21,170 bases of DNA. It comes from Thermodesulfobacteriota bacterium (lineage in GTDB: Bacteria > Desulfobacterota_D > UBA1144). Positions 5,369 through 14,721 of the stretch are shown one piece after another. The stretch covers positions 1-21,170 of the forward strand of contig JAYYZJ010000010.1 of the NCBI GenBank assembly GCA_036340075.1, read 5' to 3'. Every line of letters starts with the position of its first letter. The stretch's first letter is position 1. Below the pieces are notes generated by a model. It searched no databases. It had not been told where the DNA came from and saw only the letters and a program-made list of their open reading frames with translations. The translations under genes were made by a program, and so were the position numbers.

Positions 5369-5452
<84 letters not shown>

Positions 5453-6098: not shown

Positions 6099-6185
6099 GG
6101 AGAGTTGGCCGAGTGGCCGAAGGCGCACGCTTGGAAAGCGTGTAGAGGTTCAAACCTCTCGTGGGTTCGAATCCCACACTCTCCG
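6099..6185 (+). tRNA. tRNA-Ser (GGA), CCA not encoded
   Basis: Acceptor stem GGAGAGT/ACTCTCC, anticodon arm CACGC-TTGGAAA-GCGTG, long variable arm AGAGG..CCTCT, T arm GTGGG-TTCGAAT-CCCAC, discriminator G. Confidence 0.97.
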
Positions 6186-6191
6186 TAGTAG

Positions 6192-6258
6192 ATTTCGTCG
6201 GCTTTGCGAATTCCGCCAGGACAGAAATGTAGCAACGGTAGCTTAGCCGGCCGTAAAT
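6192..6258 (+). ncRNA. ffs: Signal recognition particle RNA (4.5S, small bacterial type), very short
   Basis: Helix-8 signature CCG-CCAGG-ACA-GAAA-TGT-AGCA-A-CGG (CAGG/AGCA symmetric loop, GNRA tetraloop), closed by TCGGCT/AGCCGG and ATTTCG/CGTAAAT; located just upstream of dnaX-ybaB-recR, a common context for ffs. Confidence 0.88.
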
Positions 6259-6261
6259 ATT

Positions 6262-7812
6262 ATGTCGCATTTAGTTTTATCAAGAAAATATCGTCCTAAA
6301 ACCTTTGACAGTATTCTTGGGCAAGAGAATGCCTTACAAATTTTGCAAAGCTTTATAAGTAATGACTCAATACCTCATGCTCTAATTTTTTGTGGATCTA
6401 GAGGTGTAGGGAAAACTTCTATGGCTAGAATTTTTGCTAAAACAATAAACTGTGAAGAATTATTAAAATCTAACAATTGCTCAAATTATGAAAACTGTTC
6501 ATGTAAAGAAATTGATGAAAATAAATCCATCGATGTTATTGAGATTGATGCAGCATCAAATAATGGAATCGAACAAATTAGAGATCTTATCGAGAGTTCG
6601 AATTATTCTTCTATTAAATGTAAATTTAAAGTTTTCATAATAGACGAAGTACATATGTTATCTAAAGCAGCATTTAATGCATTGCTTAAAACTTTAGAAG
6701 AACCAAATAAAAATACAATATTTGTTCTTGCAACAACTGAGGTTGAAAAAATTCCTCTAACTATCATTTCACGTTGCCAAACAATTAATTTTAAAAATAT
6801 CAAAAAAGATGAAATAAATGATTATATAAATTTAATTGCTAAGAAAGAAGATATTGAAATCGATACTGAGTCTACGCTTATGATTAGTGAGGAAAGTAAC
6901 GGATCAGCGCGCGACGCATTAGGGTTTCTTGAACTTTTATCTACAACACTTAACAAGAAAATATCATCAGATAAAGCATCTAAGGTTTTAGGAAGAACAA
7001 CCAAGCAAGTATTGTTAAAAATTTCTACTAGCATTATGGATGGAGATATAGAAAGCACCTTAGACCAGTACAACAACATTTATATTGGAGGCTATGACTC
7101 CAAAAAATTTGTTTTATCTTTAATGAATTATTTTCGTGCAATGATTTATTACAAGTTAGGACTAGAGAACAAAGTAGAGGATATAGACACATTAGGTTCT
7201 GATGATATAAAACAAATTCAAAGCTATGATCTTGAAACACTAGAAAATCTATTTGATGAATTGATCAAATTGTATGATTTAGCATCAAAATCAGAAAATG
7301 TTAGATTTGTTGTAGAGTCCAATCTTGTTAAATTGTGCATGGTATCAAGTTTTCTAGATTTTAGTATTACTGACAATCTAAATCCTGATTTTAAACTATC
7401 TTCTGAAAAACAAACCAAAAAAAAAAGACCAATAGAGAATAAAAAGACTTTTGATTCCGCATATTTTCTTAATAAATTAAAAGAGATTGAAAATGAGAAT
7501 TATAAATTAATCAAAGATGCTGAGATGTCTTCAAATAATTCAAAAGTTCAAATTGGTATAAAAAATAATATTATGTTTGAACTTTTAGATAATGAAGAAA
7601 GAAAAGAAGAGCTAGGAAACTTAATTAATGAAATTTTTCATAAAAAATACGAGATAGAACTTATTAAAGTAGTAGATTCCGACAATGATTTACGTAATGG
7701 TGAAGAATTTAAATTTAAAGAAAAAAAAGATAAACTATTAGAATCTGAATCTGTAAAGAATCTTTTTGATGCTTTTGATTGCAGAATACAAGATGTAGAG
7801 GTAGAAAATTAG
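6262..7812 (+). CDS. dnaX: DNA polymerase III subunit gamma/tau
   Basis: LSRKYRP, Walker A GSRGVGKTS, EIDAASN, Walker B IIDEVHML, FNALLKTLEEP, SRC motif. Confidence 0.97.
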   Translation: MSHLVLSRKYRPKTFDSILGQENALQILQSFISNDSIPHALIFCGSRGVGKTSMARIFAKTINCEELLKSNNCSNYENCSCKEIDENKSIDVIEIDAASNNGIEQIRDLIESSNYSSIKCKFKVFIIDEVHMLSKAAFNALLKTLEEPNKNTIFVLATTEVEKIPLTIISRCQTINFKNIKKDEINDYINLIAKKEDIEIDTESTLMISEESNGSARDALGFLELLSTTLNKKISSDKASKVLGRTTKQVLLKISTSIMDGDIESTLDQYNNIYIGGYDSKKFVLSLMNYFRAMIYYKLGLENKVEDIDTLGSDDIKQIQSYDLETLENLFDELIKLYDLASKSENVRFVVESNLVKLCMVSSFLDFSITDNLNPDFKLSSEKQTKKKRPIENKKTFDSAYFLNKLKEIENENYKLIKDAEMSSNNSKVQIGIKNNIMFELLDNEERKEELGNLINEIFHKKYEIELIKVVDSDNDLRNGEEFKFKEKKDKLLESESVKNLFDAFDCRIQDVEVEN

Positions 7813-11982: not shown

Positions 11983-13221
11983 CTATTCAGCGCTATATGC
12001 TTTTTCGCCATGCTCTGATAAGTCTAAGCCACTTTCCTCTTCATCACCACTAACCCTAATAGGAACAATGCTTTTAGCAACTAACACGATTACCGTAGTA
12101 ATAACAATTGTATAGATGCCAACAACAGTAACTCCAAATAATTGTTCATACCATCCTGCATAACCAAAGAATGCTACAGAGAGAGTTCCAATTATTCCCC
12201 CTACACCATGCACAGCAAAAACATCCAATGAATCATCTATATTAAATTGATTCTTAACTACTGAGCACATTTCTTGACATGCAATTCCAACAAAAGCACC
12301 AATCAAAATGGCTTCCATTGGTGAAACAGAACCAGAAGCAGGTGTTATTGTTGCCAAACCGGCTATTGTACCAGTTGCCAAACCTACTAGTGATGCCTTT
12401 CCATGTTTAAAATATTCATATCCGGCCCATGATAAAGAAGCTGCAGCGGCAGACAAGTGAGTAACTAAAAGAGTAGTTCCTGCACTACCGTTTGCGGCTA
12501 ACTGGGAACCAGCATTAAAGCCAAACCATCCAACCCAAAGCATACAAGTTCCGATCATAACGTATGCTGGATTATGTGGGGGCTTGTTCTTATCTTTTCT
12601 AGAACCTAGAAAATATGCAATAACTAAAGCAGCCAGACCAGCTGTTTCATGAACTACTAGACCTCCAGCTAAATCAACTGTACCGAGGTCAAGCAAGAAT
12701 CCTCCTGTTCCCCAAACCCAATGAGTAACAGGTGCATAACATAAAAGCATCCATAAGCTTGAAAAAATTAAAACAAATGAGAATTTAATTCTTTCTACAA
12801 ATGCACCAATAATTAAAGCTGGTGTAATGACAGCAAAGGTCATTTGAAAACCAGAAAATACAGTTTCCGGTATTGTGCCAGCCATACTATCAGGACCTAC
12901 GCCATTCAAAAATAATTTAGAAAGACCTCCCCAATATGGAGTCATATCTGCGCCATCTCCAAATGCAATTGTATACCCAGCAATAACCCAAAGTACAGAC
13001 ATGAGACAAGCCACTGCTATACAATGCATTAAAACTGAAAGAACGTTCTTAGATCTAACAAGTCCGCCATAAAACAAAGCCAAACCAGGCAAAGTCATAA
13101 AAAGAACAAGGGCTGTTGATGTTAAAATCCAAGAAGTATCACCACTGTTAAGCTCATCAGCGAAAGCGCTGGTGGGTAACATTAACAGAATAAAAACTAA
13201 AATTTTGGTAAAAATTTTCAT
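11983..13221 (-). CDS. amtB: Ammonium transporter (Amt family), downstream copy
   Basis: Signal peptide ending SAFA, PGLALFYGG, FQMTFA, DLAGGLVVH, GWFGFNAGS, DDSLDVFAVHG (twin His intact), GLDLSEHGE; SD AAGGAGG. Confidence 0.96.
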   Translation of the reverse strand: MKIFTKILVFILLMLPTSAFADELNSGDTSWILTSTALVLFMTLPGLALFYGGLVRSKNVLSVLMHCIAVACLMSVLWVIAGYTIAFGDGADMTPYWGGLSKLFLNGVGPDSMAGTIPETVFSGFQMTFAVITPALIIGAFVERIKFSFVLIFSSLWMLLCYAPVTHWVWGTGGFLLDLGTVDLAGGLVVHETAGLAALVIAYFLGSRKDKNKPPHNPAYVMIGTCMLWVGWFGFNAGSQLAANGSAGTTLLVTHLSAAAASLSWAGYEYFKHGKASLVGLATGTIAGLATITPASGSVSPMEAILIGAFVGIACQEMCSVVKNQFNIDDSLDVFAVHGVGGIIGTLSVAFFGYAGWYEQLFGVTVVGIYTIVITTVIVLVAKSIVPIRVSGDEEESGLDLSEHGEKAYSAE

Positions 13222-13260
13222 GTAATTTTACCTCCTTATACCTATCCTTAAACTATATAA

Positions 13261-13277
13261 GGCAATTTTCATGCCAA
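13261..13277 (-). promoter_or_regulatory. Sigma54 (-24/-12) promoter of the downstream amt
   Basis: Minus strand reads TTGGCATGAAAATTGCC: GG-N10-GC matching TGGCAC-N5-TTGC, about 40 nt upstream of the ATG. Confidence 0.85.
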
Positions 13278-13286
13278 ACATATATA

Positions 13287-13318
13287 GATAAGCCCTATCC
13301 CGTTAGGTAGGGCTTATC
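13287..13318 (-). terminator. 11-bp perfect hairpin, probable terminator or stabilizer of the upstream amt transcript
   Basis: GATAAGCCCTA-N10-TAGGGCTTATC, followed on the minus strand by TATATATGTTT (weak U tract). Confidence 0.7.
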
Positions 13319-13376
13319 GTTAAGGAGGTAGTGTTGTTAGGTATAAAGATGCGAACTGTTAAATTTCGCTTAGAAT

Positions 13377-14669
13377 TTATTTAAAGTAAGGATATGCTTC
13401 AATTCCAACCTCACTAGCATCGGACCCTAAGACCTCTTCTTCTTCTGATGGTCTTACTCCGATAACAATTTTTAAAATAAACCATACGATCGACGACACC
13501 ACAAAGACAAATAGAATTACTGATAAAGTACCTATAGTCTGAGTAAGAAATGATGTATCTGAATTTGATATAGGAACTGCGATGGTTCCCCAAATTCCAG
13601 CTAAAAGATGAACTGGAAGTGCTCCTACTACATCATCGATTGTTAAACTTTCAATAAATTTCGTTCCAAAGACTGCAATCACACCACCGACTCCACCTAT
13701 AAGAACTGACGTCATCATCGAGGGAGCTAATGGTTCAGCTGTAATCGATACAAGTCCAGCTAGTGCACCATTAAGTGCAAAAGTTACATCTACTTTTCCA
13801 AACATCATCTGTGCCAAAACCACAGCGGCAAGTAGACCAGAGCATGCTGCAAGATTTGTATTAACAAAAATATTTGATACCGAAACAGCATCATCCATAG
13901 TGCCTATAGCCAGCTGAGAGCCTCCATTAAAACCAAACCATCCAAGCCATAATATAAAAGTTCCCAGGGTTGCCAATGGAATGCTAGATGCAGGTATTGC
14001 ATTAGGTGTACCATCTGATTTAAATCTTCCCATTCTAGGTCCTATAATTATCGCTCCAGCAAGAGCTGCTGCTCCCCCAGCTGCGTGAACCAAAGTTGAT
14101 CCTGCAAAATCAGAAAATCCCATTGCGGATAACCATCCTCCTCCCCATTGCCATCCCATTTCAATTGGGTAAATAATTCCAGACAAAATTATTGCGAAAA
14201 TAAAAAATGTCCAAATTTTAACTCTTTCTGCTATTGTTCCAGAGACTATAGATACAGTAGTGGCACAAAAGACCATCTGAAAAAACCAATCAGAATTAGA
14301 TGCATATCCAGTGCTAATATCTTCCGCGGGTTCAAACATAGTGAAAGAACCTATGTATCCACCTTCTGGGATTCCATAAGCCAAGTTGTAACCAACTAAG
14401 AAAAACATAATTCCGGAAATTGAATATAAACCTATATTCTTCAAACATATAGTAGAAACATTCTTAGTTCTTACCATGCCTGATTCCAACATTGCAAATC
14501 CTGCTGCCATCCACATAACCAAAAAGCCACAAATAAGAAACAGGAGTGTGTTAAAAATAAAAGCGGTTTCTTCTGGACTGTTAGAAGCAAATGCATTATC
14601 AGTAAAAAGCAAAGTTAAAGAGCCAAGCATTAAAAAACATAAGAAATTTTTTAACTTTGATTTAATCAT
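13377..14669 (-). CDS. amt: Ammonium transporter (Amt family), upstream copy (start corrected to ATG 14669)
   Basis: SD GGAGG 8 nt before the ATG; signal peptide ending NAFA; MAAGFAMLESG, FFQMVF, SGTIAER, DFAGSTLVH, GWFGFNGGS, NGALAGLV, DDVVGALPVH. Confidence 0.96.
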   Translation of the reverse strand: MIKSKLKNFLCFLMLGSLTLLFTDNAFASNSPEETAFIFNTLLFLICGFLVMWMAAGFAMLESGMVRTKNVSTICLKNIGLYSISGIMFFLVGYNLAYGIPEGGYIGSFTMFEPAEDISTGYASNSDWFFQMVFCATTVSIVSGTIAERVKIWTFFIFAIILSGIIYPIEMGWQWGGGWLSAMGFSDFAGSTLVHAAGGAAALAGAIIIGPRMGRFKSDGTPNAIPASSIPLATLGTFILWLGWFGFNGGSQLAIGTMDDAVSVSNIFVNTNLAACSGLLAAVVLAQMMFGKVDVTFALNGALAGLVSITAEPLAPSMMTSVLIGGVGGVIAVFGTKFIESLTIDDVVGALPVHLLAGIWGTIAVPISNSDTSFLTQTIGTLSVILFVFVVSSIVWFILKIVIGVRPSEEEEVLGSDASEVGIEAYPYFK

Positions 14670-14704
14670 TGTTATATCCTCCAAGTAATATTTATTTCTT
14701 TGTT

Positions 14705-14721
14705 TGCAAAATCTATGCCAA
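14705..14721 (-). promoter_or_regulatory. Sigma54 (-24/-12) promoter of the upstream amt
   Basis: Minus strand reads TTGGCATAGATTTTGCA: GG-N10-GC near-consensus, about 36 nt upstream of the ATG. Confidence 0.88.

Follow-up and report, generated by a model that had tools for sequence, protein, structure and literature searches.

In ocean bacterioplankton, the genes for ammonium uptake rank among the most highly expressed. The window analysed here, a 21,170-nucleotide stretch of DNA from a Thermodesulfobacteriota bacterium, carries two ammonium transporter (amt) genes arranged head to tail on the minus strand, and raises the question of whether the 3′ end of the upstream amt transcript governs translation of its neighbour. 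Both ORFs belong to the Ammonium_transp family, their products share just 28% identity, and a spacer of 155 nt separates them.

Tandem amt genes and their sigma-54-type promoters

The genes and their putative promoters are as follows.

14706..14720, minus strand: sigma-54-type promoter of the upstream amt, TGGCAT-N5-TTGC; the motif lies ahead of the orthologue in all 17 relatives' loci displayed
13377..14684, minus strand: upstream ammonium transporter gene, ORF as listed (PF00909, E 9.1e-98)
13379-13377, minus strand: stop codon of the upstream amt
13263..13277, minus strand: sigma-54-type promoter of the downstream amt, TGGCAT-N5-TTGC, between the complementary blocks described below and the Shine–Dalgarno (SD) sequence; kept in relatives
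11983..13221, minus strand: downstream ammonium transporter gene (Ammonium_transp, E 1.2e-102), with its ATG at 13221

An alternative ATG of the upstream gene, with an SD ahead of it, lies at 14668 (minus strand). The sigma-54 consensus comprises GG and GC elements at a fixed spacing (TGGCAC-N5-TTGC). The pattern TGGCAY-N5-TTGC occurs at five sites in the 0.96-Mb genome, three of which precede nitrogen genes, namely both amt genes and the gene for P-II, and as a control the pattern read backwards gives one site. The genome encodes rpoN, one true Sigma54_activat protein and one P-II, and the motif stands ahead of both amt genes in relatives too. At the downstream amt the elements and their spacing, together with the rpoN and activator genes found, match what is expected of a sigma-54 promoter. 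The P-II gene (contig C8 of the source genome, approximately 88186-88293, minus strand) is preceded by a sigma-54-type site and has a leader of some 90 nt, whose match to the anti-SD element of the amt spacer is limited to the SD core. Elsewhere in the window are two tRNA genes and a small SRP RNA (5369-5452, 6099-6185 and 6188-6265), the latter barely reaching its gathering threshold (40.6 vs 40 bits).

Complementary blocks in the spacer

The RNA read from the spacer contains two stretches complementary to the 5′-UTR of the downstream amt, located between two hairpins.

13351..13369, minus strand: small hairpin GCGAA/UUCGC, 5 bp with a 9-nt loop, at the start of the upstream amt 3′-UTR
13338..13349, minus strand: first complementary block UCUUUAUACCUA, pairing with 13244-13233 over 12 bp including one G.U
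13321..13330, minus strand: anti-SD UACCUCCUUA, immediately 5′ of the 11-bp hairpin; perfect complement of the SD UAAGGAGGUA at 13238-13229
13287..13318, minus strand: 11-bp terminator-like hairpin with UACCUAAC in its loop; -19.1 kcal/mol
13222..13253, minus strand: downstream amt 5′-UTR, the pairing target, carrying UUAAGGA, UAGGUAUAA and the SD UAAGGAGGUA

The positions given in the first-pass annotation for the hairpins, blocks and SD are every one correct on the minus strand, and the 10-nt pairing that it proposed between 13321-13330 and 13229-13238 is one of perfect complementarity. Its 9-nt pairing of 13338-13346 with 13236-13244 also holds (UUAUACCUA, 13346-13338, is complementary to UAGGUAUAA, 13244-13236) and extends to the 12 bp listed above. 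UACCUAAC, a motif said to recur in the large hairpin, is indeed present twice, at 13343-13336 and again at 13309-13302. The 3′ part of the anti-SD has an alternative partner, the UUAAGGA at 13253-13247. Overall, the anti-SD is situated between the stop codon (13377) and the hairpin at 13318-13287, a layout that is the same in 16 family loci.

Two properties of this arrangement bear on its possible function. The 11-bp hairpin is followed by a tail, TATATATGTT, with a weak, interrupted U run, at which a terminator scan made no call; owing to this poor U tail, run-through of the hairpin is likely here. Additionally, since both blocks sit upstream of the well-supported promoter of the downstream amt, an mRNA begun at 13277-13263 lacks them; the earlier assertion that they are absent from the sigma-54-initiated mRNA is thus supported.

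We consider it probable, at roughly 0.6, that the 3′ tail of the upstream amt occludes the ribosome site of the downstream amt. The proposed module would comprise a single-stranded UACCUCCUUA, another complementary block (13338-13349) 5′ of it and a hairpin 3′ of it. This tail would pair with the 5′-UTR and SD of the neighbouring amt paralog, itself driven by sigma-54, keeping ribosomes off, and a transcript that passes the hairpin would contain both partners and hence fold on itself. The second transporter would then be translated only from mRNA begun at its own promoter, which is free of the module. The tail, whether on the full-length upstream mRNA or on a processed fragment, could also pair with the promoter-started mRNA in trans, and the cis and trans modes would rely on identical base pairs. 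The analysis establishes the sequences, their conservation and covariation and where the promoters lie; from these we infer the translation block, the read-through and any trans action.

Predicted folding and chance expectation

Folding predictions are in part consistent with such masking. A 171-nt RNA of the locus has a predicted fold of -51.2 kcal/mol (z = -6.2), equalled by 0/200 shuffles. The predicted fold of the read-through RNA contains two helices, 13349-13338 with 13244-13233 and 13326-13320 with 13253-13247, both nested around the hairpin and the promoter, and leaves the SD only 2–3% unpaired. When the 3′-UTR is folded alone, both blocks are predicted to be 98% unpaired, and, as a point against the masking model, in the promoter-started mRNA the SD is already partly paired in the prediction (17–21% unpaired). 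A fold-based test of cis masking gave a probability of SD pairing with the 3′-UTR of 0.63 vs 0.50 for shuffled 3′-UTRs, with 13/22 loci exceeding their control (0.57 vs 0.48 shuffled at this locus); this test does not discriminate, partly since shuffling destroys the hairpin.

These control values are in keeping with a reading in which the region has no regulatory role, being an ordinary terminator region whose C/U-rich flank owes its match with a strong SD to composition and common ancestry: shuffled 3′-UTRs, too, pair with the SD in folds, and 43/5000 dinucleotide shuffles of the 3′-UTR at this locus give a 10-nt match to the -25..+3 region (37/2000 for a match of that length to the whole 5′-UTR). 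Counted over the two strands of the genome (0.96 Mb), the 10-mer occurs five times, this pair making up two of those occurrences; AAGGAGG is rare (73 sites, 18 of them ahead of ORFs of at least 50 aa); and CCTCCT is found in the sense 110-nt tail of 6/790 long ORFs in this genome, the other tails that bear it having the motif within coding sequence or within an apparent tRNA. The pairing at this locus alone is only moderately improbable, and the weight of the argument rests on the relatives.

Conservation of the element in the source family

The source family comprises 19 species genomes of about 1 Mb each, which as relatives are not independent of one another. An upstream-type amt is present in 17/19 of them, the source genome included, and orthologues 79–89% identical to the upstream amt occur in 16/18 of the other family genomes. 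The relatives' loci retrieved comprise 12 tandem pairs, three with the upstream gene only (L016-18), one with the downstream gene only (L003) and one at a contig end.

Across the aligned 3′-UTRs (n=16), mean column identity is 47% and the anti-SD is the sole conserved block; its consensus, TGCTACCTCCTTG, abuts the 5′ side of the hairpin, and the motif columns are invariant or at least 90% conserved. CUCCU is present in 13/16 family 3′-UTRs, one further 3′-UTR has CCCCCUU and two are degenerate (L006 and L010). The structure of the 11-bp hairpin is kept in relatives despite different sequences. The small GCGAA/UUCGC hairpin is not conserved, several relatives having a GUAGCA...UGCUAC hairpin instead. 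For the first block, a same-genus relative has a weaker counterpart, UCCUUAU : AUAAGGA. That the anti-SD is a conserved block inside an otherwise diverged 3′-UTR argues against the absence of a role.

The motif is also retained where no suitable target follows, which counts against masking of a neighbouring SD, as in L016-18, which have no downstream amt, and in L013 and L015, where the downstream gene is without SD or promoter. In the latter two, both of genus g4, the downstream amt directly follows the hairpin, lacks the sigma-54 motif, the SD and a signal-peptide-like N-terminus, and has an in-frame TGA immediately ahead of its ATG; it may be expressed by read-through alone. In genus g5 (L004, L014 and L016-L018) the 3′ arm of the terminator hairpin doubles as the downstream amt sigma-54 promoter, TGGCATGCTTATTGC, and in the three loci without the downstream gene this arm reads GGGCATGCTTTTAGC or GGGCATGCTTTTTGC, i.e. 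a decayed promoter. The converse arrangement is seen at L003 (genome G008), where no upstream amt is present, yet 91% identity is kept over the sigma-54 motif, the SD and the hairpin, here ATAAGCCCT...AGGGCTTAT. This hairpin, which precedes the downstream-type amt by about 100 nt, terminates nothing obvious, since there is no upstream amt and the next gene up, beginning about 90 nt further away, is divergent.

Persistence of the motif in single-amt genomes is one of the points in favour of self-regulation of the type known for icaR (see below), in which the anti-SD would bind the SD of the upstream amt mRNA that carries it, its match to the neighbour being secondary. A GGAGG-type SD does precede every upstream amt, and in genus g2 the motif has a 7-nt fit to its own SD (in L012, ACCUCCU : AGGAGGU), exceeding its fit to the neighbour's. 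At the present locus, however, the predicted duplex with the upstream gene's own SD has a 5-nt core and an energy of -9.3 kcal/mol, vs -21.2 kcal/mol with the neighbour's SD; and in 6/6 genomes of genera g1, g3, g5 and g6 the longest match to the own start region is 5–7 nt and lies off the SD, vs 8–10 nt for the downstream SD. We regard self-regulation as distinctly improbable. An 11-nt match, CCUUUUAAGAU : AUCUUAAAAGG, between the terminator tail and the upstream amt's own 5′-UTR beside the SD was noted in L016; it is found in 1/3 single-amt genomes and may be due to chance.

The first-pass annotation had itself named a small plus-strand ORF as a competing explanation of the sequence; we reject it, as this ORF is not conserved across the 16 loci. 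Behind TAAGGAGG a start codon follows at 4–12 nt in just 6/16 loci, encoding peptides of 6–16 aa, of which only those of L013 and L015 (one genus) are alike and none resembles that of this locus.

Covariation of the 3′-UTR with the downstream SD

Alignment of orthologous amt spacers, one of the checks that had been proposed, reveals that the complementary block is not only conserved but covaries with the downstream SD. In genus g5, L004 has the motif AUAUCUCCUU opposite a downstream SD of AAGGAGAUAU, a 10-nt match, and genera g1, g3 and g6 have matches of 8–10 nt at GGAGGU. Searches of metagenome and genome contig collections, which exclude near relatives and in which the best matches are at most 69% identical, extend this comparison: the upstream Amt is 57–69% identical to Amt of Pelagibacteraceae, an unrelated lineage whose genomes often carry tandem amt pairs. 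In these the complementary sequence lies in a hairpin loop or terminator loop and tracks the downstream SD, as in the following pairs.

L142: 3′-UTR AUCCUCCAUG; downstream SD region CAUGGAGGAU
L238: 3′-UTR UCCCUCCAUG; downstream SD region CAUGGAGGGA
L235: 3′-UTR CCCUCCAUG; downstream SD region CAUGGAGGG
L071: 3′-UTR UCCCCUUAAUU; downstream SD region AAUUAAGGGGA
L150 and L240: 3′-UTR UUCCCCC; downstream SD region GGGGGAA

The correspondence was assessed by permutation, reassigning 3′-UTRs among start regions, with the downstream start codons picked by eye. For 31 pairs the observed value was 220 vs 184.8±6.6, reached in 0/20,000 permutations; for eight hand-picked distinct pairs it was 67 vs 52.5±4.4 (p = 0.0019); and for the 24 pairs left when near-duplicates were removed from 38, it was 176 vs 151.5±6.5, with 15/50,000 permutations reaching it. 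Shuffles of single loci give equally good matches in 8–43/5000 cases (L001, L004, L071 and L142). A perfect match of at least 8 nt on the SD is present in 10/24 de-duplicated pairs and lacking in 14/24.

That long matches occur in under half of the pairs would fit a region with no regulatory role and weighs against the preferred reading. Set against this reading are the permutation result for the de-duplicated pairs, the seven distinct sequence pairs that match, and the rarity of the motif among other 3′ tails of this genome; we judge the absence of a role to be improbable. The complementarity is probably under selection, in our estimation from these sequence comparisons, and the matched changes in related ocean bacteria suggest that the pairing controls the second transporter.

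Further features were observed in the Pelagibacteraceae spacers. L233, from a genome of that family, has AUCCUCCAUGG, the terminator-loop motif of L142, in the 5′-UTR of its second amt, 13 nt upstream of the SD GGGAGGA, where it could form a local SD-masking hairpin. L113, L114 and L226-L237 have within the first 60 nt past the amt stop a conserved hairpin of about 47 nt, AGAGGCTCTTCG...GAAGAGCCTCT, which precedes the CU-loop hairpin and the terminator. Other Pelagibacteraceae spacers (e.g. L142, L235, L238 and L239) have a TATGCATTTAAA-type motif between the terminator and the second amt.

Strong terminators and a different pairing site in genus g2

In four genomes of genus g2 the 10 nt that follow the hairpin include 8 T, which marks the hairpin there as a terminator. 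Here the anti-SD fits the downstream SD poorly (5–7 nt), a point against the preferred reading, and the terminator loop, (UU)CCUAGCUUU(UAC), is instead complementary to the beginning of the long downstream 5′-UTR over 9, 9 and 14 nt. The 14-nt match is that of L012 (1819-1931), in which the loop UUCCUAGCUUUUAC is perfectly complementary to the first bases of the sigma-54 5′-UTR, GUAAAAGCUAGGAA, and the SD is not complementary; 1/2000 shuffles is equally good. The 9-nt matches are those of L009 and L011. Taken together, a long SD match tends to accompany the lack of a U run and a short match accompanies the strong U run of g2, which fits masking of the SD on read-through transcripts.

One arm in g2, AAAGCUAGG, is conserved, not covarying and away from the SD, as might be expected were the arms a DNA-level feature, namely inverted copies of a binding site for a protein (activator or repressor) around the sigma-54 promoter that overlap the SD incidentally. 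Wherever a family genome has the promoter, the arms do lie on either side of it. Their sequences vary freely among lineages, but in 10/24 de-duplicated pairs the SD core falls within the downstream arm; their spacing is variable, which would be intolerable for a protein site; the upstream amt promoter is without such arms; and the Pelagibacteraceae pairs pair likewise with no TGGCAY-N5-TTGC in the displayed spacers, as read by eye. From these sequence relationships a protein-binding role of the arms is highly unlikely.

RNA contigs and possible action in trans

RNA data were available as assembled contigs from four metatranscriptome runs of four studies, in which DNA carry-over is possible. 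These contigs cover both amt genes, with none over 13170-13298, and one spans 13299-13475, the anti-SD included. The contigs yield no usable transcript ends. Compared with the assembly, natural populations show variants at three positions: 13356 and 13358, seen in four RNA runs, and 13333, seen in one.

The contigs of three of the studies break off at 13333-13335, immediately 5′ of the seed. Such ends are of interest for a purely trans-acting 3′-UTR-derived sRNA with an anti-SD seed, for which adjacency of the target would merely reflect tandem paralogs: the tail, released from the upstream mRNA or forming its end, would be a stable regulator and pair through its seed with the downstream amt mRNA and perhaps with other mRNAs. 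The polymorphism at 13333, seen in the fourth run, coincides with the contig ends, however, and may by itself be sufficient to break the assemblies. The position of the element within the 3′-UTR, where it shares the parent mRNA's 3′ hairpin/terminator, is that expected of a 3′-UTR-derived sRNA, and the element has a conserved, accessible seed complementary to a target mRNA; in the prediction the seed is 98% unpaired beside the 3′ hairpin. Action in trans is also compatible with the seeds borne in loops, with the strong terminators of g2 and one Pelagibacteraceae group, and with retention of the motif in genomes without an adjacent target. Pelagibacteraceae present their tailored sequences in hairpin or terminator loops, in some cases followed by 8 U (the L113 group), and the g2 loops just described, with 8 of 10 T behind them, match the 5′ end of the downstream 5′-UTR. 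CU-rich runs are found in 115/152 amt tails vs 272/622 tails of other ORFs.

Several results weigh against an exclusively trans-acting sRNA. No short RNA was seen among the contigs, Hfq was not found in the genome, which is 92.9% complete, and the U tail at this locus is poor. In this genome the 10-mer lies ahead of just two gene starts, those of the downstream amt and of one 115-aa ORF, such that the claimed repression of other AGGAGG-type mRNAs has little support. Among three single-amt genomes, 18/35 motif-complementary sites were inspected and none lies at the start of a long ORF, and among five g5 genomes, where 30/53 AAGGAGATAT sites were inspected, the sole long ORF start was that of the downstream amt of G015. 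An sRNA acting solely in trans is, in our view, somewhat unlikely.

The original proposal of an anti-SD switch or sRNA that could silence the paralog is partly supported: the block is conserved, covaries and lies upstream of the promoter, while the small hairpin is not conserved and other targets are little supported.

Comparison with known systems

A scan with Rfam models returned no match to the element at gathering thresholds and none on 13150-13450 at E<=10; the 16 related loci gave sub-threshold matches only. Neither the glnA RNA nor the Downstream-peptide model matched at gathering or at E<=10. No account of an amt 3′-UTR anti-SD was found in the literature, nor in the accessible parts of PMC2704228, PMC5069720 and PMC9438474, supplements aside.

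The alphaproteobacterial ar14 sRNAs (RF02344; also named cuckoo, CcsR and NfeR1) carry the loop motif CCUCCUCCC. They resemble the amt element in having one or more hairpins that present a C/U-rich anti-SD, followed by a terminator, but place the motif in the loop, whereas here it is single-stranded and attached to an amt gene. Some alphaproteobacterial amt 3′-UTRs (L038, L064 and L084) do have CCUCCUCCC in a loop; the ar14 model has no match on 13150-13450 at E<=10, and the best related locus, L038, scores 28.8 bits vs a gathering threshold of 58.8.

Glutamine riboswitches (glnA RNA) ahead of amt genes provide, in the part of the source available, a precedent for RNA-level control of these genes involving the ribosome site (PMC2864571). 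In contrast to those riboswitches, the amt element lies in the 3′-UTR of the preceding gene and upstream of its target's promoter.

A closer parallel for cross-regulation is NarS, an sRNA derived from the narK 3′-UTR that represses nirC; such sRNAs of Escherichia and Salmonella are described, in the accessible text, as Hfq-associated products of RNase E decay (PMC7038943). As proposed for the amt element, the 3′ end of one transporter mRNA there regulates the mRNA of a related transporter. The NarS type is Hfq-associated, whereas for the amt element Hfq was not found, a full anti-SD serves as the seed and the gene immediately downstream is the target.

As a still more ambitious proposal, these elements may form an undescribed class of 3′-UTR anti-SD modules on the major amt of the source family and of Pelagibacteraceae, two streamlined and very abundant ocean lineages, acting in trans either as part of the mRNA tail or as a processed sRNA and setting both the Amt hierarchy and a post-transcriptional nitrogen response; this we regard as rather doubtful. 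Were the preferred reading true, the choice of transporter would be set at the RNA level, beyond sigma-54/NtrC-type transcription. The covarying pairs amount to natural compensatory mutants for tests, and the design recurs in Pelagibacteraceae, of which cultured strains exist. The principle itself is known; what would be new here is a 3′-UTR anti-SD, or 3′-UTR-derived cross-regulation, aimed at an adjacent amt paralog.

The nearest precedent for that principle is icaR of Staphylococcus aureus, in which, according to the available part of the report, a C-rich 3′-UTR motif pairs with the SD region of its own mRNA and blocks translation initiation (PMC3868564). Both are short, C-rich 3′-UTR anti-SD sequences that form part of an mRNA, with no separate sRNA gene. 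Pairing in icaR is with its own SD and creates an RNase III substrate, as that part describes (PMC3868564), whereas the best partner of the amt element is the SD of the adjacent paralog (10 nt vs a 5-nt core for its own). Unlike icaR, so far as the available text of that report describes it, the amt arrangement has an internal sigma-54 promoter that would let the target escape, and would thus extend 3′-UTR anti-SD control from a gene's own mRNA to a neighbouring gene across an internal promoter.
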